In this document: in pieces, positions 2,639 through 55,035 of the stretch | Layout: each line of letters opens with the position of its first letter | Position numbering within the stretch: the stretch's first letter is position 1 | Assembly: GCA_016699915.1 (NCBI GenBank) | Contig: CP064990.1 | Location: 512,671-576,670, forward strand | DNA: 64,000 nt | DNA from: Neisseriales bacterium | Lineage (GTDB): Bacteria; Pseudomonadota; Gammaproteobacteria; Burkholderiales; Q3-R57-64 | Direction: 5' to 3' | Made by a program: the position numbers and the translations under genes | The notes under the pieces: generated by a model | The model's input: the letters and a program-made list of their open reading frames with translations, nothing else | Database searches by the model: none | What the model was told of the DNA's origin: nothing

Positions 2639-3003
2639 TGGTGGAGGCGGCGGGAATTGAACCCGCGTCCGAAAGTCCTCTACAGTGAGTTCTACATACT
2701 TAGCCATTTCTTTTGTTTTTAACTTTCATTACGCCGAATTGGCAGGCTTAATGTTAGCGAGTTACCTTGCGTTTTACCTTTAATCAAGTAACCCGATTAA
2801 AGGCGAGCTGATGTGATATGACGCTACAGTGGTGTAACCCACCCGATCCACCAGCCTATCGTTGTAGCGTCTAGCGCGATTAAGCGGCTAGAGCGTAGTT
2901 TTCGTCGTTTGCGACTATAATTTTTCAGTGTTTTACGGGATAACTGAAATCCCGGTATGCACCCATCTGCTTTGCAACCCCCGTCGAAACCAAGGTCGCC
3001 CCC
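2639..3003 (-). ncRNA. ssrA: tmRNA (SsrA), tag reading frame ANDENYALAA*
   Basis: Reverse strand starts GGGGGCGACCTTGGTTTCGACGGGGGTTGC and ends GGGTTCAATTCCCGCCGCCTCCACCA. Internal resume frame GCA AAC GAC GAA AAC TAC GCT CTA GCC GCT TAA. Confidence 0.95.
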
Positions 3004-8983: not shown

Positions 8984-9691
8984 CTAATCCCCTGCTTTGC
9001 ATAGCGACGAGTGGCGAAGTGTTAAGTGTCCTTTTTCTAATTGATAGATGCGCTGCATCCGCTTTGCTAACTGCTTATCATGCGTCGCCACAATAATGCT
9101 TGTATTGGTTCGCTCGTTTAACGATAACAGTAAATCAATGATGTGTCTTGCATTGTCGTAATCTAAATTACCCGTTGGTTCATCTGCTAATATGCAAAGT
9201 GGTTCGGTAACCATGGCTCGCGCAATCGCAACGCGTTGGCGCTCACCTCCTGATAGAGCGCTGGGTTTATGTTGTATTCGATGCTGTAAACCAACTTTTT
9301 CCAATATAGCATGGGCTCGTGTTTCGGCTTCTTGCCATGTTATTCTTCTAATTAATAATGGCATGGCTGTATTTTCTAAAGCTGTCAATTCAGGCAATAA
9401 GTGATGAAACTGATAAATGAATCCCAACATGCGATTACGTAAATAACCTATTGCTTTTTCTGAAAGCGTTGATAAAGCTGTCTGATCAACCCACACTTCC
9501 CCGCAGCTTGGCCGATCTAACCCACCTAATAAGTGCAATAATGTACTTTTTCCAGAGCCAGAAGGCCCTGTGATCGCTACACATTCACCCGATGCGACGG
9601 ATAATGCAACCTTGGCAAAAACTTCGACATAGGTGGCACCACGGCCATAATTTTTGCTAAGGTTACTGCAATGTAAAACGGTTTTATTCAT
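8984..9691 (-). CDS. lolD: Lipoprotein-releasing system ATP-binding protein LolD
   Basis: Walker [12 protein letters not shown], signature [14 protein letters not shown], Walker [12 protein letters not shown]. Start placed at ATG 9691 ([16 protein letters not shown]), overlapping the upstream permease stop in an ATGAATAA junction. The track ORF extends to 9727. Confidence 0.85.
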
Positions 9692-10934
9692 AACGTAAAG
9701 CTTCAGAAGGCTGAGTATGTGCTGCACTTAAACTCGGATAAAGTGTTGCCAAAAAGGTTAATGTTAGCGATAGCGTAAGAATCACGGCAATATCGCTTAA
9801 CTGAATTTGGCAAGGCAGATAATTTATTAAATAAATATCACCTTGGATAAGTTTGGTACCTGATATCCATTCAATCCATTGCCCAATTTTGCCAATATGC
9901 AATGCTGCCATTACTCCAAGCAATACACCTAATAGTGTACCCAATATCCCTGTTACCATACCTTGAATAATAAAGATATACATGATGCTACGTGGTGTAG
10001 CACCAAGTGTGCGCAAAATGGCAATATCTGAACGCTTATCATTTACCATCATATATAACGTTGAAACAAGCCCAAAGGCAGCAACTAGAATCATGATTGA
10101 TAAAACAATTAACATCATCCGTTTTTCGATTTGCACAGCACGAAAATAATGACTATGTTGTTCGGTCCAATCCGTTACTGATTTTAATTTTGACGACAGT
10201 GAGCTTTTCAGTAAATCGGTTTTGACTTGCGGTGCTTGCATAGGGTTAAGGAGTCGCAATCGAATGCCAGAAATGGAGCGACCCAAGTGATACAAGGTTT
10301 GCGCATCGGTTAAGTGAATAGCCACGACGGCACGGTCATATTCTACAACACGGGTACGAAAAAGAGAGACCACTTTAAATTGTTTAAAATGCGGTATCAC
10401 ACCAAATGGGGTCATGTTACCCGCTGGCACAACCACCATAACAAAATCTCCCACCTTCACTTTAAGTGTAGTGGCTAACGCTTTACTCAATGCCATGCCA
10501 AATTGACCAGATTGAAGTGCTTCAAAATTGCCTTGTGTTACTTGCCAGCCTTGATCTAATACCTTTTTTTCAAAAACCGGATCAATACCTCTGATCATGA
10601 CATGTTGTAGTGTGTCGCCTTGAGACAATAAGGCCTGGCCACTGACAAAAGGAGCAGCTGCTGCCACATTTGGTATTATTTTAAGTTGCTTGATCGTATC
10701 GGGCCAACGCGAACTTGCGTATTCACTTAGTTCAATATGTGAAGCTGTACTGAGCAGATATGACCTAATTTCTTTTTGAAACCCATTCATTACAGAAAGC
10801 ACGATAATCAGAGAAGCCACTCCTAAACAAATAGTTAGCGTCGTAATTGAAGCAATGACAGAAATGAAACCATAACGAAAGCGTGGACGCAAATAACGCA
10901 GCCCAATTTTCCACTCAAATGGTAGATTTATCAT
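9684..10934 (-). CDS. Lipoprotein-releasing system transmembrane protein (LolC/E family; single permease, LolF-like arrangement)
   Basis: 416 aa. N-terminus FEWKIGLRYLRPR, FtsX-type C-terminal TM bundle, directly coupled to lolD. Confidence 0.8.
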   Translation of the reverse strand: MINLPFEWKIGLRYLRPRFRYGFISVIASITTLTICLGVASLIIVLSVMNGFQKEIRSYLLSTASHIELSEYASSRWPDTIKQLKIIPNVAAAAPFVSGQALLSQGDTLQHVMIRGIDPVFEKKVLDQGWQVTQGNFEALQSGQFGMALSKALATTLKVKVGDFVMVVVPAGNMTPFGVIPHFKQFKVVSLFRTRVVEYDRAVVAIHLTDAQTLYHLGRSISGIRLRLLNPMQAPQVKTDLLKSSLSSKLKSVTDWTEQHSHYFRAVQIEKRMMLIVLSIMILVAAFGLVSTLYMMVNDKRSDIAILRTLGATPRSIMYIFIIQGMVTGILGTLLGVLLGVMAALHIGKIGQWIEWISGTKLIQGDIYLINYLPCQIQLSDIAVILTLSLTLTFLATLYPSLSAAHTQPSEALRYE

Positions 10935-11160
10935 GATTGCCAGTCGTAGGACGGTAGGGATTTTTTAAGTTGTGGATTCGGTCAAGTAAAAACTTGCGAA
11001 TTTGTGTTTCATCACAGCCCATGAGTAAAGCGTCCTCAAAAACATCTTGGGCGCTTTGAATCAGTTCTTCTAAGTTTTCACGCATGACCTTAATTTTCTC
11101 AATACATGATAAGGGTTGGCCGAGTGAGTCGTGCCATATAGGAAAAGTATTATCTGGCAT
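10915..11160 (-). CDS. Hypothetical 81 aa protein (no family recognised)
   Basis: ORF sits between NlpC/P60 (13 nt upstream gap) and the Lol permease (20 nt overlap), on the same strand. Predicted helical and acidic. Only positional support. Confidence 0.4.
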   Translation of the reverse strand: MPDNTFPIWHDSLGQPLSCIEKIKVMRENLEELIQSAQDVFEDALLMGCDETQIRKFLLDRIHNLKNPYRPTTGNHDKSTI

Positions 11161-11173
11161 TTATATTACCTTT

Positions 11174-11689
11174 TTATGATTCATTATTTTTGGTTTTGAC
11201 CACTCGCCTTGCACTGTTATAACGCTTCGCCCAATACGATGATTTGATATTGCTAATTTCAATATATTTACCTGTGCGCGGCGCGTGGACAAATTTATCA
11301 TCTCCTAGGTATAGCCCGACGTGCGAATTTCTACCACGCCTTGTATTAAAAAACACAAGATCACCTGGTTTTAATTCCTTTAACGTGACTAGTACGCCGA
11401 TACGCGCTTGCTCTGCTGCAGTACGGGGCATACTCAAATTCAGGGATTGCTTGAAAATATATTGAATAAATCCGCTACAATCTAAACCTCGAATTGGGTT
11501 AGAGCCACCAAATTTGTACGCGACACCAATTAGGGTCATGGCTTGCAACAAAAGCTCATCTACCGCTGTACTTTGTGCTAATTCAGATTCAGTGGCCGTA
11601 TCCGCACTCGCTGGGGAGGTAAACACTAGACCCATTACATTGCAAAAACTAGCCAAAATTATGATAAAAAAACGGCACTTTAAAATCAT
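11174..11689 (-). CDS. Secreted NlpC/P60 (C40) cell-wall peptidase
   Basis: Signal peptide ending SPASA. Catalytic Cys context GLDCSGFIQYIF and His context NSHVGLYLGDDKFVHAP. Confidence 0.85.
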   Translation of the reverse strand: MILKCRFFIIILASFCNVMGLVFTSPASADTATESELAQSTAVDELLLQAMTLIGVAYKFGGSNPIRGLDCSGFIQYIFKQSLNLSMPRTAAEQARIGVLVTLKELKPGDLVFFNTRRGRNSHVGLYLGDDKFVHAPRTGKYIEISNIKSSYWAKRYNSARRVVKTKNNES

Positions 11690-11704
11690 CAGACATACAC
11701 ACAG

Positions 11705-11736
11705 ATAAATAGGTTAGATGATAAATAGGTTAGATG
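11705..11736. repeat. Perfect tandem 2 x 16 bp repeat (ATAAATAGGTTAGATG) just upstream of the NlpC/P60 start; duplicated at 19121-19152
   Basis: Read directly: ataaataggttagatg ataaataggttagatg, followed by the degenerate atgaatag. Confidence 0.9.
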
Positions 11737-11783
11737 ATGAATAGTTCAGGGAAATTATATACCCAAAAATTCTAAAAACTGAC

Positions 11784-11802
11784 TAGCTAACTAGATTAGC
11801 TA
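11784..11802. promoter_or_regulatory. 19 bp perfect palindrome TAGCTAA-CTAGA-TTAGCTA in the divergent NlpC/P60-autotransporter control region (candidate operator); second copy 19199-19217
   Basis: Seen in sequence: 7 bp arms with a 5 bp centre. No known regulator motif assigned. Confidence 0.25.
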
Positions 11803-12112
11803 AGGATAAGCTTACGCAAAACCTCTAAAATTAAAGAAAAATAAAATCATACTGGCGGTACAATCTTTCTCATTTTGAAGCGCTCTGCTAATATATTTTA
11901 TGCCCTACCCTATAACAATGCTGTCTAATATAAACTATGTTAATCTGTTTCTAGGTGGCTTTAATACTGGATTCCATACGATCTTACAACTAGTAACGAT
12001 TAAGAATAATTAAGAAAGGAAGAAAAGATATTTTCAATATTTGAATAAAAATTATTGACAAATACGCACACTGAACAATTTTAGTGTATCGTGGCAACAT
12101 ATTTTTTCATAA

Positions 12113-14590
12113 ATGCTCAACATGCAGAAAATTTATTCTTTTGTTAAGCATCTTTTTTTGATATTTTTTGTTCTCCAATTACTCATTAATTTGGGCGGTT
12201 GCGCCTCTACTGGTGGCGGGGAGACAAAAAAAGGAAATTATACACCTCCTCCACCTACAGAAGAACCTGCACCTACAGAAGAACCTGCACCTCCTCCACC
12301 TACAGGACCTAATCAAACTGTTGATATGGATTTTGATGGTTTACAAGACAAGCTGGATCCCAAACCCAATGACACCGACAATGATGGCGCCACCAATGAT
12401 CAAGATGAAGATGATGACAATGATGGGATAGAAGATGACGATGAAAGCATCAACAAACAATATGACACGGACAATGATGGCATCAGAAATGATACGGATC
12501 CGGATGATGACAATGATGGTTTAAATGAAGCCGAAGGGGGATATCCTGATGCTCAAGGTGATCGGAAGCCCTATGACACCGACAATGATGGCAAAACCAA
12601 TGATCAAGATCCTGATGATGACGATGATGGGATAGTGGATGCTAATGATGGTGATCCGTTACATCCGCTCGAAAAAGGTCCAAAAGTGGATACGGATTTC
12701 GATGGTTTAGTAGATGACCAAGACACCATGGATAATGACACCGACAATGATGGCACCACCAATGATGAAGATGAAGATGATGACAATGATGGCTTTGAAG
12801 ACGAGGATGAGGGCGTGGATTGGTTTATCGAAGCCTTATCTGTTGAACAACAATATGCTTATACCTTTGACACGGACAATGATGGCATCAGAAATGATAC
12901 GGATCTAGATGATGATGCCGATGGTTTAAATGAAGCCCCAGGAGGTTTTCTTGATCCTCAAGGTGATCGGAAGCCCAATGACACCGACAATGATGGCGCC
13001 ACCAATGATCAAGATGAAGATGATGACAATGATGGGATAGAAGATGACGATGAAAGCATCAACAAACAATATGACACGGACAATGATGGCATCAGAAATG
13101 ATACGGATCCGGATGATGACAATGATGGTTTAAATGAAGCCGAAGGGGGATATCCTGATGCTCAAGGTGATCGGAAGCCCTATGACACCGACAATGATGG
13201 TATCAGAAATGATGAAGATGAAGATGATGACAATGATGGGATAGAAGATGACGATGAAAGCATCAACAAACAATATGACACGGACAATGATGGCATCAGA
13301 AATGATACGGATCTAGATGATGATGCCGATGGTTTAAATGAAGCCCCAGGAGGTTTTCTTGATCCTCAAGGTGATCCCAAACCCAATGACACCGACAATG
13401 ATGGCGCCACCAATGATCAAGATGAAGATGATGACAATGATGGGATAGAAGATGACGATGATGATCAACCATTAGATCCAAATAATCCTCATAAGTTAGC
13501 TTATCTTCTCGACAAGGACTTGCAATCGAATCAATCAGAAGCACCATTGACCGATACCGATGGTGATGGCCTTATGGATTCAAAAGATCCTTTACCAAAA
13601 ATTCATCAAGGGGTAGTGAAAGCAGCAACCTATTTAGCTCATCGAGAATTAACTCTCAAGGTTTTTAACTACGATGTCCAACAAGTTTTAACTCAAATAC
13701 CTGATAACAACAAACCTACTTGGGGAACTTGGATGCAAATCCAAAAATTGGGTGCAACGCAATCTATTCAAGCGACTCAAGAACAAGCGGATGCTGATAC
13801 ACAATACCATATTGTTTCAACCAATTATGGTGGCTGGATGACTCAATGGGGTATCAATACGATCCAACGCCAAGACACGACCCTCTACCATGTGGGTTTA
13901 ACAGCTGGCTTAATGCAAGCAACCCTTATTGCTGATGATCATCATCCAGCTTCGATCACCACAATAACCAAAGGTTTTGCTTTGGGTGGTTATGGTTTTT
14001 ATAAAGGTACCCAAGGTGAAATCGCTTTCAGTCTTCAAAAAGGTTGGTTTGATCATCAACAAGATGTAGCCTATCAAAGCAGTACCCTCATCAGTCATAT
14101 CAAAGCTACTTATGCTTTACACACTTGGGGCGCATTAACCTTCAGCCCAACTTTGGATATTACTTATCGCTTTAATACGGATAATCTGAATGAAACAACG
14201 ACAGAAAATCAATCCATGTATGAAGGGATATTGGGTCTTCGTGTATCCAGCGTTTGGGGTAGATTGGCTCCCTTCATAACGGTTGATTATAAATTGGGGG
14301 CATCGGATGATCTAAAGGTGACTCAAGATGATGCCAAACAAACTACTTTTACTCTCAAAACCCAACCAATACCTATTCATTTTGGCCTACAAGGTGGATT
14401 GACTTATACTCCCAATCATCAATGGAATCTACAAAGTCAATTAAGTTATCGAGACAAAACACTGAATGTAGACTGTCAATTAAACTATCAGCTTCATGAA
14501 GCGCTTAGTCTAAGTGCTAGCTTGCATGAAACCTTTTTGAAGACAGACGTTGATGTTAAAGGAGAAGTGGGATTAAGATGGGGGTGGTGA
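12113..14590 (+). CDS. Lipoprotein-type autotransporter with a thrombospondin-type-3-like Ca-binding repeat passenger (long allele, 825 aa)
   Basis: N-terminus MLNMQKIYSFVKHLFLIFFVLQLLINLGGC (h-region plus LGGC lipobox-like site), then Pro-rich linker PPPPTEEPAPTEEPAPPPPTG. About 400 aa of DxDxDGxxNDxD units follow (DTDNDGIRNDTDPDDDNDG...). The C-terminal ~285 aa has alternating beta-strand character and ends GEVGLRWGW (aromatic terminal motif of an OM beta-barrel). Confidence 0.7.
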   Translation: MLNMQKIYSFVKHLFLIFFVLQLLINLGGCASTGGGETKKGNYTPPPPTEEPAPTEEPAPPPPTGPNQTVDMDFDGLQDKLDPKPNDTDNDGATNDQDEDDDNDGIEDDDESINKQYDTDNDGIRNDTDPDDDNDGLNEAEGGYPDAQGDRKPYDTDNDGKTNDQDPDDDDDGIVDANDGDPLHPLEKGPKVDTDFDGLVDDQDTMDNDTDNDGTTNDEDEDDDNDGFEDEDEGVDWFIEALSVEQQYAYTFDTDNDGIRNDTDLDDDADGLNEAPGGFLDPQGDRKPNDTDNDGATNDQDEDDDNDGIEDDDESINKQYDTDNDGIRNDTDPDDDNDGLNEAEGGYPDAQGDRKPYDTDNDGIRNDEDEDDDNDGIEDDDESINKQYDTDNDGIRNDTDLDDDADGLNEAPGGFLDPQGDPKPNDTDNDGATNDQDEDDDNDGIEDDDDDQPLDPNNPHKLAYLLDKDLQSNQSEAPLTDTDGDGLMDSKDPLPKIHQGVVKAATYLAHRELTLKVFNYDVQQVLTQIPDNNKPTWGTWMQIQKLGATQSIQATQEQADADTQYHIVSTNYGGWMTQWGINTIQRQDTTLYHVGLTAGLMQATLIADDHHPASITTITKGFALGGYGFYKGTQGEIAFSLQKGWFDHQQDVAYQSSTLISHIKATYALHTWGALTFSPTLDITYRFNTDNLNETTTENQSMYEGILGLRVSSVWGRLAPFITVDYKLGASDDLKVTQDDAKQTTFTLKTQPIPIHFGLQGGLTYTPNHQWNLQSQLSYRDKTLNVDCQLNYQLHEALSLSASLHETFLKTDVDVKGEVGLRWGW
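12320..13590 (+). repeat. In-frame mosaic array of TSP3-like repeat codons with long perfect internal duplications
   Basis: 12365-12591 is identical to 12974-13200 (227 bp, offset 609 bp). The GATGAAGATGATGACAATGATGGGATAGAAGATGACGATGA block recurs at about 12404, 13013, 13216 and 13421. Confidence 0.9.
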
Positions 14591-14731
14591 TTATTGTTGG
14601 GGCGTGCAATAAGTTGGGTGGACTCACTAACTATTTTTGTACACATGCAACGTCGACTTAATCATAGCCTTCTCGTTGTACCTATCACTACAAACAGTGA
14701 CTTCCTTCAAAAGATAAAACTACTATTTGGA

Positions 14732-14805
14732 TGGTGCCGCTAACTAGAATCGAACTAGTGATTATTGATTACGAATCAACCGTTATACCACTTAACTATA
14801 GCGGC
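14732..14805 (-). tRNA. tRNA-Thr (anticodon CGT)
   Basis: Reverse strand GCCGCTATAGTTAAGTGGTATAACGGTTGATTCGTAATCAATAATCACTAGTTCGATTCTAGTTAGCGGCACCA; loop TTCGTAA. Confidence 0.9.
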
Positions 14806-14831: not shown

Positions 14832-14908
<77 letters not shown>

Positions 14909-17056: not shown

Positions 17057-17133
17057 GGCGAATTAGCTCAGTTGGTTAGAGCGACGGAATCATAATCCGC
17101 AGGTCCGGGGTTCAAGTCCCTGATTCGCCACCA
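17057..17133 (+). tRNA. tRNA-Met (anticodon CAT, elongator type; tRNA-Ile2/lysidine not excluded)
   Basis: GGCGAATTAGCTCAGTTGGTTAGAGCGACGGAATCATAATCCGCAGGTCCGGGGTTCAAGTCCCTGATTCGCCACCA. The G1-C72 pair argues against an initiator. Confidence 0.85.
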
Positions 17134-18817: not shown

Positions 18818-19105
18818 TCAATCAAAATCTGCTGCAGTACGGGGCATACTCAAATTCAGGGATTGCTTGAAAATATATTGAATAAATCCGCTACAATCTA
18901 AACCTCGAATTGGGTTAGAGCCACCAAATTTGTACGCGACACCAATTAGGGTCATGGCTTGCAACAAAAGCTCATCTACCGCTGTACTTTGTGCTAATTC
19001 AGATTCAGTGGCCGTATCCGCACTCGCTGGCGAGGTAAACACTAGACCCATTACATTGCAAAAACTAGCCAAAATTATGATAAAAAAACGGCACTTTAAA
19101 ATCAT
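18818..19105 (-). pseudogene. 5' fragment of the NlpC/P60 peptidase gene (duplicate; first 91 codons identical to 11174-11689 product, then DFD*)
   Basis: The ORF translation is identical through ...LNLSMPRTAA. It stops before the catalytic His and keeps the signal peptide and Cys motif. The duplication boundary is at 18828. Confidence 0.9.
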
Positions 19106-21007
19106 CAGACATACACACAGATAAATAGGTTAGATGATAAATAGGTTAGATGATGAATAGTTCAGGGAAATTATATACCCAAAAATTCTAAAACTGACTA
19201 GCTAACTAGATTAGCTAAGGATAAGCTTACGCAAAACCTCTAAAATTAAAGAAAAATAAAATCATACTGGCGGTATAATTTTTCTTATTTTGAAGCGTTC
19301 TGCTAATATATTTTATGTTTTATTTTATAACAATGCTGTCTAATATAAACTATGTTAATCTGTTTCTAGGTGGCTTTAATACTGGATTCCATACGATCTT
19401 ACAACTAGTAACGATTAAGAATAATTAAGAAAGGAAGAAAAGATATTTTCAATATTTGAATAAAAATTATTGACAAATACGCACACTGAACAATTTTAGT
19501 GTATCGTGGCAACATATTTTTTCATAAATGCTCAACATGCAGAAAATTTATTCTTTTGTTAAGCATCTTTTTTGATATTTTTTGTTCTCCAATTACTCAT
19601 TAATTTGGGCGGTTGCGCCTCTACTGGTGGCGGGGAGACAAAAAAAGGAAATTATACACCTCCTCCACCTACAGAAGAACCTGCACCTACAGAAGAACCT
19701 GCACCTCCTCCACCTACAGGACCTAATCAAACTGTTGATATGGATTTTGATGGTTTACAAGACAAGCTGGATCCCAAACCCAATGACACCGACAATGATG
19801 GCGCCACCAATGATCAAGATGAAGATGATGACAATGATGGGATAGAAGATGACGATGATGATCAACCATTAGATCCAAATAATCCTCATAAGTTAGCTTA
19901 TCTTCTCGACAAGGACTTGCAATCGAATCAATCAGAAGCACCATTGACCGATACCGATGGTGATGGCCTTATGGATTCAAAAGATCCTTTACCAAAAATT
20001 CATCAAGGGGTAGTGAAAGCAGCAACCTATTTAGCTCATCGAGAATTAACTCTCAAGGTTTTTAACTACGATGTCCAACAAGTTTTAACTCAAATACCTG
20101 ATAACAACAAACCTACTTGGGGAACTTGGATGCAAATCCAAAAATTGGGTGCAACGCAATCTATTCAAGCGACTCAAGAACAAGCGGATGCTGATACACA
20201 ATACCATATTGTTTCAACCAATTATGGTGGCTGGATGACTCAATGGGGTATCAATACGATCCAACGCCAAGACACGACCCTCTACCATGTGGGTTTAACA
20301 GCTGGCTTAATGCAAGCAACCCTTATTGCTGATGATCATCATCCAGCTTCGATCACCACAATAACCAAAGGTTTTGCTTTGGGTGGTTATGGTTTTTATA
20401 AAGGTACCCAAGGTGAAATCGCTTTCAGTCTTCAAAAAGGTTGGTTTGATCATCAACAAGATGTAGCCTATCAAAGCAGTACCCTCATCAGTCATATCAA
20501 AGCTACTTATGCTTTACACACTTGGGGCGCATTAACCTTCAGCCCAACTTTGGATATTACTTATCGCTTTAATACGGATAATCTGAATGAAACAACGACA
20601 GAAAATCAATCCATGTATGAAGGGATATTGGGTCTTCGTGTATCCAGCGTTTGGGGTAGATTGGCTCCCTTCATAACGGTTGATTATAAATTGGGGGCAT
20701 CGGATGATCTAAAGGTGACTCAAGATGATGCCAAACAAACTACTTTTACTCTCAAAACCCAACCAATACCTATTCATTTTGGCCTACAAGGTGGATTGAC
20801 TTATACTCCCAATCATCAATGGAATCTACAAAGTCAATTAAGTTATCGAGACAAAACACTGAATGTAGACTGTCAATTAAACTATCAGCTTCATGAAGCG
20901 CTTAGTCTAAGTGCTAGCTTGCATGAAACCTTTTTGAAGACAGACGTTGATGTTAAAGGAGAAGTGGGATTAAGATGGGGGTGGTGATTATTGTTGGGGC
21001 GTGCAAT
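18828..21007 (+). repeat. Copy B (2180 bp) of the segmental duplication (partner 11412-14610)
   Basis: See copy A. 3199 - 2180 = 1019 bp, which is the 1017 bp repeat-array indel plus two 1-nt homopolymer indels. Confidence 0.95.
19528..20987 (+). pseudogene. Second autotransporter allele (short repeat array), frameshifted at a T6 tract after codon 15; residual ORF 19572-20987 (471 aa) from TTG
   Basis: ATG 19528 reads MLNMQKIYSFVKHLF then TGA (19573-19575), because T6 (19568-19573) replaces T7 (12153-12159). Downstream protein is 100 percent identical to the long allele except for the 339 aa array difference. Confidence 0.75.
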
Positions 21008-53013: not shown

Positions 53014-55035
53014 CTACGTTCGTAACGTTGCACCAATTGTACTGACCGCATCAAGTAACTGATCCATTGCGGCATTAATTTCGTCATCAACGAGCGTTTT
53101 ATCCATAGCTTGCAACAAGACATGGTAGGCCATACTTTTCTTGCCTAGCGGGATTCCAGAACCACTATAGACATCAAATAACTCAATGGATTTGACAATA
53201 TGTGGTGCATGGCAATACAAAGCATCATATAACTGCTTGGCCGAACAAGTTTTATCAACAATCAGCGCCAAATCACGCTTGACCATGGGAAACTTAGACG
53301 TGGTACGATAACTTGCTAAACATTGTTCGTATAATACTTCGATACTGAACTCACTTAAAATGGGTGCGCTAAGTAAATGATATTGCTGGGTAAGCTGGGG
53401 CGACAATTCTCCAATAACACCAATAACTTGCCGATCAAGTAAGATATTTGCAGCACGGCCTTGATGTAAGGCTAGATGTTCGATAGGCTCAAACTCGGCC
53501 TTACGCGGTGCAAACAAGGCTTCAATGTCAGCTTTAACATCATAAAAATCAACGCGTGATTCAGCATAACCCCATTGCTCAGGATAGCGCGCTCCCCAAG
53601 CTAATAAACCTATATAAGCCTTCTGCTCAGCTTGCTGATTGATCCCGCTAAAGATATTGGCTATCTCAAAACATCGCACACGCGTATGCTGGCGATCCAT
53701 ATAATAGATCAAACGCTCCACTAAAGTTCCTAACAGGGTGGAGCGCATCATGGTCGCTTGACTATCAATAGGGTTTAGAAGTCGCACTAAAGACGTTTGA
53801 AATGAAAAATTTTTCTCTAACGCCTCTGATACAAAAGGATAGTGAATGACTTCTTGATAGCCTCTTGCGACTAATACCTGGCGTAGGAAGCGAGATTGCA
53901 CTACAGCTTTAGGTTGCAAAACCACATGCAAGGGCGCAGATGGGCTAAGCGCTGGAATATTGTCGTAACCATACAGTCTTGCAATTTCCTCAACCAAATC
54001 TTCCTCAATCATTAAATCGTTGCGAAAGCTTGGCTTGCTAACTGTAAAATGACCCGTTTGCCGTGTAAAATTAAGCATTAAACGCGCTAATATCGTAGCG
54101 ATTTTCTCATCAGGAATATGGATACCAAGTAATTGCTCAACGCGTTTTGTGTGTAGATCAATAAACTGATCGCATAAACTATCGCCTTGTTTCTGAACAA
54201 TCGATCCGACTTGTCCACCAAAACTTTCTACAATCAACTGGGTTACCCGTTCAAGCGCTTCTTGTTGCGCTGTACTATCAATACCCCTTTCGAACCGATA
54301 GGCCGCTTCAGAAACAATGCCCAAGCTACGTGCTTTATTAGCCACCACATTAGGTTGAAAATAGGCCGACTCTAAAAATAGATCTTGTGTCGTAGATGTC
54401 AGAGCACTTTCCATACTACCCATTATGCCCGCAAGAGACAAAGGCTTTTTGTCATCCGCAATGACTAACATCGTCGCATCCAATGTGATGAGTTGATCAT
54501 TTAAGCAATGTAATACCTCGCCCATTTTTGCCATTCTAACTTGTATAGCCCCATCAATTTTTTTAGCATCAAAAATATGGAGAGGCTGTCCTAGTTCTAG
54601 CATCACATAGTTGGCTATATCAACAACTGTTGAAGTAGGTACCAATCCACTAGCTACGAGGCGATCAGTGATCAACTGTGGTACGCACCCATTGATTAAA
54701 TCAATGTGTCGAATTAACCGACCAGTATAGAAACAACAGGCGCTTGGCTCATGAATATGTACAGCGGGCGCTCGGTGATACGTAATAGTAGCTGGAATAA
54801 CACAGGATGGATGCCAAGGCGTGTTCGTTAAAGCGGATACTTCCCTTGCTAAACCCTTAATAGATAGGCAATCTCCACGATTAGGCGTAATTTTAAAGAG
54901 AAAAATATGATCTGTCTTACCACTTGGATATATAGCCTCAACCTCAATACCCGACACGGTTAATAATTCTGCAAGATCTTCAATTGATAGCGGAGGATCT
55001 ACCCAATGGCGTAACCAGCTTTCTAGAATTTGCAT
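53014..55035 (-). CDS. pheT: Phenylalanine--tRNA ligase beta subunit (673 aa, lacks the N-terminal OB-fold tRNA-binding insert)
   Basis: MQILESWLRHWVDPPLSIEDLAELLTVSGIEVEAIYPSGKTDHIFLFKITPNRGDCLSIKGLAREV aligns to E. coli PheT residues 1-40 and then directly to ~150 onward (TIEISVTPNRADCLG). Confidence 0.9.
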   Translation of the reverse strand: MQILESWLRHWVDPPLSIEDLAELLTVSGIEVEAIYPSGKTDHIFLFKITPNRGDCLSIKGLAREVSALTNTPWHPSCVIPATITYHRAPAVHIHEPSACCFYTGRLIRHIDLINGCVPQLITDRLVASGLVPTSTVVDIANYVMLELGQPLHIFDAKKIDGAIQVRMAKMGEVLHCLNDQLITLDATMLVIADDKKPLSLAGIMGSMESALTSTTQDLFLESAYFQPNVVANKARSLGIVSEAAYRFERGIDSTAQQEALERVTQLIVESFGGQVGSIVQKQGDSLCDQFIDLHTKRVEQLLGIHIPDEKIATILARLMLNFTRQTGHFTVSKPSFRNDLMIEEDLVEEIARLYGYDNIPALSPSAPLHVVLQPKAVVQSRFLRQVLVARGYQEVIHYPFVSEALEKNFSFQTSLVRLLNPIDSQATMMRSTLLGTLVERLIYYMDRQHTRVRCFEIANIFSGINQQAEQKAYIGLLAWGARYPEQWGYAESRVDFYDVKADIEALFAPRKAEFEPIEHLALHQGRAANILLDRQVIGVIGELSPQLTQQYHLLSAPILSEFSIEVLYEQCLASYRTTSKFPMVKRDLALIVDKTCSAKQLYDALYCHAPHIVKSIELFDVYSGSGIPLGKKSMAYHVLLQAMDKTLVDDEINAAMDQLLDAVSTIGATLRT

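Follow-up and report, generated by a model that had tools for sequence, protein, structure and literature searches.

A one-base difference in a short thymine run puts the derived copy of a duplicated, putative autotransporter-like gene out of frame

The closest described counterparts of the locus reported here are NalP (and MspA/AusI) of Neisseria meningitidis, phase-variable and lipidated classical autotransporters, and the tract of the nalP gene is a run of 9–13 cytosines (C9-13). Variation in size through tandem repeats is known from other surface proteins, namely the alpha C protein of group B streptococci and the Vlp proteins of mycoplasma. Surveys of phase-variable genes define the tract lengths that are taken into account: the cut-off for poly-A/T was at least 10 bases in Campylobacter (PMC6321876) and that for T at least 11 bases in Neisseria (PMC5953494), and the published cut-offs used in the present work were at least 7–9 bases for poly-G/C and at least 10–11 bases for poly-A/T (PMC6321876, PMC5953494). 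The locus lies in a stretch of 64,000 nucleotides, analysed as a whole and called the window hereafter, which contains two copies, A and B, of a gene for a putative autotransporter-like protein, both of them inside one 3.2-kb segmental duplication. Among 185,579 species representatives, the best identity found for LolE was 54% (Aquitalea, Chromobacterium and unclassified Neisseriaceae), and the host is apparently a Neisseriales-like betaproteobacterium without a close relative among these representatives. The G+C content of the window is about 40%. None of the window proteins that were looked up is on record in public collections, and the same holds for exact-sequence look-ups of copy A, of ribosomal protein L9 and of a protein fragment described below (P0001). 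A Shine-Dalgarno-like motif was found upstream of a plausible start in 13 of the 37 long ORFs, a share that is low for a betaproteobacterium. The window further includes a tmRNA gene (2639–3003, minus strand) and a pheT gene (53014–55035, minus strand) whose product is 673 aa long, against roughly 790 aa usual for PheT, and shows no tRNA-binding domain at its N-terminus in the Pfam scan.

Comparison of the coding sequences of copies A and B reveals two differences only, an indel in a T run close to the 5' end and a deletion within a repeat array (Table 1). The run is embedded in CATC-T7-GATA in copy A, where an 825-codon ORF is read from the first ATG to the end of the gene, and in CATC-T6-GATA in copy B, where one T fewer ends translation after 15 codons whichever of the two ATG codons is used. 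Tract length sets the reading frame, T7 being in frame and T6 out of frame, and the sequence downstream of it is identical apart from the array deletion. Since a TAA codon at 19560–19562 closes the long frame of copy B on its upstream side, TTG 19572 is the only possible start of this frame; initiation there yields MIFFVLQLLINLGGC, in which the basic n-region is missing and no basic residue at all precedes the h-region. The one-base difference cuts the body of the copy B protein off from the n-region of its signal peptide. The preliminary description of this DNA had already reported that the shorter tract puts ATG 19528 out of frame and that the long ORF can start from TTG 19572 only, without a basic n-region, and the sequence, its translation and the upstream TAA codon bear out both observations. 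For annotation purposes copy B should be flagged as frameshifted instead of being called from the TTG codon.

Table 1. Features of the duplicated locus, in window coordinates.
Feature	Coordinates	Strand	Basis or remark
Duplicated segment, ancestral copy A	11412–14610		Comparison of the copies and flanking genes
Duplicated segment, derived copy B	18828–21007		Comparison of the copies and flanking genes
Full NlpC/P60 gene, 171 aa, locus A	11174–11689	-	Pfam and synteny
Truncated NlpC/P60 stump, 95 codons (92 duplicated residues and 3 new ones), locus B	18818–19105	-	Pfam
Copy A, intact gene (825 aa)	12113–14590	+	ORF, motif counts, fold prediction
Probable signal peptide of copy A, MQKIYSFVKHLFLIFFVLQLLINLGGC, read from the second ATG	12122–12202	+	Inspection
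T7 tract of copy A, in frame	12153–12159	+	Codons CTT TTT TTG (L-F-L), start of the h-region
Part of the repeat array absent from copy B, 1017 nt	12445–13461	+	One of several equivalent registers
C-terminal translocator-like domain, copy A residues 492–825	13586–14587	+	Fold prediction; 19983–20984 in copy B
5' remnant of copy B, 15 codons, MLNMQKIYSFVKHLF, then TGA (19573–19575)	19528–19575	+	Translation
T6 tract of copy B	19568–19573	+	Sequence and alignment of the copies
Long ORF of copy B, 471 codons from TTG	19572–20987	+	Equals copy A minus 339 codons

Relatives of the encoded protein are scarce. A word-indexed search of 5.8 billion clusters with full-length copy B, the C-terminal domain and the N-terminus yielded no homologue; an exhaustive HMMER search of 1.84 billion representatives yielded six proteins, leading to six contigs (L081 to L086), and the clusters of these six matches added two members of 719 and 520 aa. 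Pattern scans of genome and metagenome contigs with the C-terminal domain gave no match, a scan of contigs with the family alignment recovered the L085 contig only, tblastn against a plasmid collection gave no match, and one alignment (A2) was set aside as too divergent. One member of the family carries the JGI label 'outer membrane autotransporter protein'. The contigs that contain relatives of the gene have a G+C content of 37–45%. The full-length members, i.e. the window protein and the homologues from L085 and L086, share the same architecture, with a signal peptide, Asp-rich repeats, a segment of the type PxIH...helix and a C-terminal domain of about 300 residues whose last residue is W; partial contigs show the parts that they cover, which in the case of L083 are the repeats and the helix segment. 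The family is very rare, with about seven metagenomic relatives known and no Pfam model, and according to the predicted fold it would join a passenger of calcium-binding-like Asp-rich repeats to a divergent autotransporter-like barrel. In three of the four contigs L083 to L086 the homologue is not intact. That of L085 (JGI 3300027970, Ga0247837_1000674; positions 9495–12160) falls into three ORFs through two frameshifts, the first at an A8 run right after the signal peptide (9694–9701), where A7 would be in frame, and the second at a C4 run (about 10040–10050); its neighbouring genes are intact and the contig stops 73 nt past the gene. The homologue of L083 (ENA ERZ19030593) has a frameshift at a C6 run (about 684–692) located between the Asp-rich repeats and the linker helix, where C7 would restore the frame. 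In L084 (ENA ERZ18643531) nothing of the gene is found upstream of the linker helix and unrelated sequence (1–80) abuts the conserved segment DFALNIFNYD, so this is either a 5'-truncated copy or a chimeric contig. The L086 homologue is the sole intact one. Members of this small family are therefore often degenerate, and in more ways than through one switchable tract.

The predicted order of domains in the copy A protein is a signal peptide, a Pro-rich spacer, Asp-rich repeats, a linker helix and a C-terminal β-barrel. The number of DxDxDG motifs is 23 in copy A and 4 in copy B. These repeats matched nothing in Pfam, NCBIfam or the sequences of the PDB, and their resemblance to thrombospondin type 3 repeats is one that we assume from motif counting. 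As judged by inspection, the probable signal peptide has the basic n-region and the h-region of an N-terminal Sec signal; this layout is common to the L085 and L086 homologues, similarity at the level of residues is not. Copy A contains a lipobox-like LGGC, imperfect in having N at position -4, and the signal peptides of the L085 and L086 homologues are of type I; lipidation of the copy A product is uncertain. At the other end, the protein terminates in GLRWGW and its homologues in NWTW or IWNW, in line with the C-terminal aromatic residue of a β-signal. Searches against Pfam and NCBIfam with E-values up to 10 gave no match either for the window protein or for its homologues, the autotransporter family PF03797 included, and a profile built from seven family members found no match among PDB sequences. 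With AlphaFold2, the C-terminal domain reached a pLDDT of 30 from its single sequence and a pLDDT of 66.7 with a pTM of 0.59 from an alignment of seven sequences. The type Va fold is defined by a linker α-helix followed by a 12-stranded barrel; the model shows a helix at residues 5–27 followed by an all-β barrel, and a Foldseek search of the PDB ranked autotransporter translocators (AIDA-I, BrkA, AaaA, EstA, EspP and NalP) as its best matches, with E-values of 4e-5 to 1e-3 and TM-scores of 0.36 to 0.55. The label of autotransporter given to the gene at the outset thus finds backing in the predicted fold, with its matches to translocators, but none in a sequence-family match, and as a working description an autotransporter-like protein of the outer membrane is a plausible product of the gene.

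Segment A of the duplication consists of the 5' part of an NlpC/P60 gene, an intergenic region of 423 nt, the autotransporter-like gene and 20 nt past it. Segment B is flanked by the terminator of an amino-acid permease gene on one side and by the 3' end of an SDR gene on the other. The left boundary falls within the NlpC/P60 gene, which is transcribed divergently. At locus A this gene is complete and adjoins lolE, as it does in Chromobacteriaceae and Neisseriaceae genomes, and a truncated piece is present at locus B; locus A is therefore ancestral and locus B derived, the truncated NlpC/P60 gene being a by-product of the duplication. The repeat units of copy A are 64–94% identical among themselves, from which it follows that its array is not a recent expansion of the single unit in copy B. 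What copy B lacks is 1017 nt (339 codons) of the array, deleted in frame, and the junction lies within a stretch of 89 nt that is identical in the first and the last repeat unit (19770–19858 in B), as expected for recombination between repeats. A second homopolymer indel is found upstream of the gene, where A5 (11774–11778) in one copy faces A4 (19190–19193) in the other, and there is one isolated substitution (11615/19031). Over the shared coding sequence of about 1.5 kb the copies show no substitution at all, so that either the duplication is very recent or the copies are kept uniform by gene conversion.

Some further features of the duplicated segments and their surroundings may be mentioned here. 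Within 50 nt of the intergenic region (11861–11910 vs. 19276–19325) there are ten differences, each of which pairs a plus-strand C of copy A with a T of copy B; they affect 10 of the 14 C's of this interval, which shows no G/A differences, and the remainder of about 2.1 kb contains one substitution. This cluster looks like a single strand-specific deamination event on single-stranded DNA and not like gradual divergence, or, if B were the ancestral copy, like A-to-G changes on the other strand. It turns the TACAAT of copy A into TATAAT in copy B (19274–19279); a scan for promoters and terminators returned no more than chance level. A tandem repeat of 16 nt, GATAAATAGGTTAGAT, in 2.6 copies, directly precedes the start of the NlpC/P60 gene (11704–11744 and 19120–19160), is found in both duplicates and may represent a candidate regulatory site. 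Two tRNA genes on the minus strand (14735–14805 and 14835–14908) lie about 125 nt past the right end of segment A, and another one on the plus strand (17057–17130) is situated between the two copies.

The T6 of copy B probably reflects the true loss of one base from a short, unremarkable run, by which a redundant, recent paralogue is inactivated. According to this explanation, a 3.2-kb piece comprising the 5' end of the NlpC/P60 gene, the intergenic region and the lineage-specific autotransporter-like gene would have been copied recently to a place 7.4 kb away, and mutations of the slippage and recombination types would afterwards have altered the derived copy: recombination between identical repeat units would have removed 339 codons from its Asp-rich array, one A would have dropped out of the upstream A5 run, and the null mutation would have been the loss of one T from the T7 run within the codons of the signal peptide. 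The rest of the protein could then start only at the TTG codon, which would leave a hydrophobic stretch without a basic n-region. On account of the stop after 15 codons and this TTG-only start, copy B is most likely not exported. It would represent a redundant paralogue that has only begun to decay, in which T7 might in principle be restored by replication slippage, at a rate as low as in any other short run. The layout of the locus, the frameshift, the direction of the duplication and the ordinary character of the tract are shown by the sequence; we infer both that expression or export of copy B is lost and that T6 is a true mutation and not a base-calling error.

One alternative is true slipped-strand phase variation, in which changes between T6 and T7 would switch copy B, and potentially copy A, OFF and ON often enough for mixed populations to arise, whose cells could show the long form or the short one, the two together or none. 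The position of the tract in the codons of the signal peptide of a predicted outer-membrane protein, the sequence downstream of it in copy B, which is intact and identical to that of copy A, and the gene class (a surface-exposed autotransporter in a Neisseriales-like host) all match known phase-variable genes, nalP being a phase-variable autotransporter of Neisseria itself. Two relatives are also out of frame at homopolymers, A8 in L085 and C6 in L083, which could be taken as switching throughout the family, and short A/T runs can switch in species deficient in mismatch repair. The length of the tract, however, speaks against such a switch, as T7/T6 falls 3–4 bases short of the poly-A/T cut-offs. 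Nor does it stand out from the background of the 64-kb window, in which A/T runs of this kind amount to 18 T7, 25 A7, 14 A8 or T8, seven of these being T8, and one A9; leaving the tract itself aside, there are 58 runs of at least 7, and 41 of these comparable or longer runs lie inside intact long ORFs. With the codon usage of the window, L-F-L is expected to be written as T7 about 8% of the time, and among the remaining 36 long ORFs 14 T runs of seven or more were counted on the sense strand, so that the tract is accounted for by codon usage alone. Moreover, the second frameshift of the L085 homologue, located at a C4 run, points to a pseudogene rather than to a switch, and copy B arose from an in-frame ancestor very recently, too recently for selection to have formed a contingency locus. 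The claim that the T7/T6 difference is the classic signature of ON/OFF phase variation finds no support in a tract that lies below the published cut-offs and is ordinary in its window; its role as a specialised, selected switch is not supported, and phase variation is on the whole an unlikely explanation. Somewhat less to be expected is a two-allele system in a family whose members are switched by homopolymers as short as the T7/T6 of the window and the A8 and C6 of the relatives, in which long forms with 23 motifs and short forms with 4 motifs could be displayed alternately; such a system would need weak mismatch repair in the host. Should sequencing reads show switching at this seven-base T run, it would constitute simple-sequence-repeat phase variation below the usual tract lengths.

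It is rather improbable that T6 is a base-calling or polishing error at a homopolymer in a repeated region, in which case copy B would truly be in frame with T7. Some weight is given to this explanation by P0001, a protein fragment of 115 aa from a Logan assembly that corresponds to about 13740–14045 of the window: its in-frame core of about 100 residues (8–107) shares 99% identity with the window gene, and the frame is lost at both ends of the fragment, precisely at two places where an A5 of the window would read A4, which suggests that an error-prone read set of the window organism exists. It is also true that at both indels a homopolymer of copy B is one base shorter than that of copy A, and errors of long reads typically go in this direction. 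A general problem with the assembly is nevertheless ruled out. None of the 20 housekeeping ORFs that were tested (including those of Mfd, SecA, DnaE, DnaB, PheS/T and ThrRS) looks split, those with Pfam matches have full-length domain coverage (three small ORFs have no match), and not one of the 126 homopolymers inside long ORFs breaks the frame; the assembly is of good quality. As to the tract itself, systematic errors depend on context, and in copy A a T7 was called although its surroundings are identical over 240 nt on the upstream and 290 nt on the downstream side; polishing of repeats, for its part, tends to make copies alike and not different.

Residual expression of copy B in spite of T6 is very improbable. 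Three routes can be envisaged: a -1 slip of tRNA-Phe on UUU ahead of UGA, transcriptional slippage on the T run, and initiation at TTG 19572 with a signal peptide devoid of its n-region. For the first of these it may be said that in CUU UUU UGA the P-site tRNA-Phe re-pairs perfectly one base back, the next codon then being UUG in the long frame, and that a stem-loop (z = -2.5) starts a few bases downstream; yet the canonical X XXY YYZ heptamer is absent, and copy A has the same downstream sequence without any need of recoding. Because copy A uses this sequence in frame, it has not been selected for recoding, and programmed -1 frameshifting as an evolved feature is thereby ruled out. For the second route, a T6 run is short for transcriptional slippage. 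As regards the third, the missing Shine-Dalgarno motif ahead of the TTG codon is not decisive, given that such motifs precede only 13 of the 37 long ORFs of the window, but it is atypical for a signal peptide to have no basic residues, and the L085 and L086 homologues, the two whose 5' end could be retrieved, both have a basic n-region. Finally, the proposal that the pair forms an expressed locus plus a silent cassette of the pilE/pilS type is ruled out, as copy B keeps 700 nt of upstream sequence together with the 5' coding end and, having no coding substitutions with respect to copy A, offers no diversity; silent copies of that type have neither promoter nor 5' end and bring variant sequence for gene conversion.

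Set against the systems described before, the locus resembles Neisseria pilE/pilS in having one intact copy and one that is predicted to be without normal expression, but it differs from it in that copy B possesses the complete upstream region and 5' coding end, has no variant sequence to donate to copy A, and is the only other copy in a set of two. With the alpha C protein and Vlp it shares an in-frame change of an array, recombination between repeats having taken away 339 codons and left a long and a short allele; here, however, the two sizes are found at two loci of one genome instead of being variants of one locus in a population. The likeness to NalP goes further and includes the order of the parts, in which a signal peptide bearing a lipobox-like cysteine is followed by a passenger, a linker helix and, in the present case as a prediction, a barrel at the C-terminus, a predicted fold that matches the NalP translocator (1uyn, TM-scores of 0.47/0.55), a homopolymer in the 5' coding region that decides the frame, and a Neisseriales-like betaproteobacterium as host. 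Unlike nalP, the tract is T7/T6 and not C9-13, there is no sequence similarity to the autotransporter models of Pfam, the passenger is an Asp-rich DxDxDG array and not a subtilisin-type protease, and the two states of the tract are known from a single sequence, switching itself having been seen in nalP. Ordinary pseudogenisation, from whose pattern nothing observed here departs, is matched in the sole coding lesion, a single-base deletion in a short run, in the redundant and derived nature of copy B, which carries the dead fragment of a neighbouring gene, and in the further frameshifts and the truncation found among the relatives. On present evidence the case is a routine one, in which a duplicated gene was probably disabled through a one-base homopolymer deletion.
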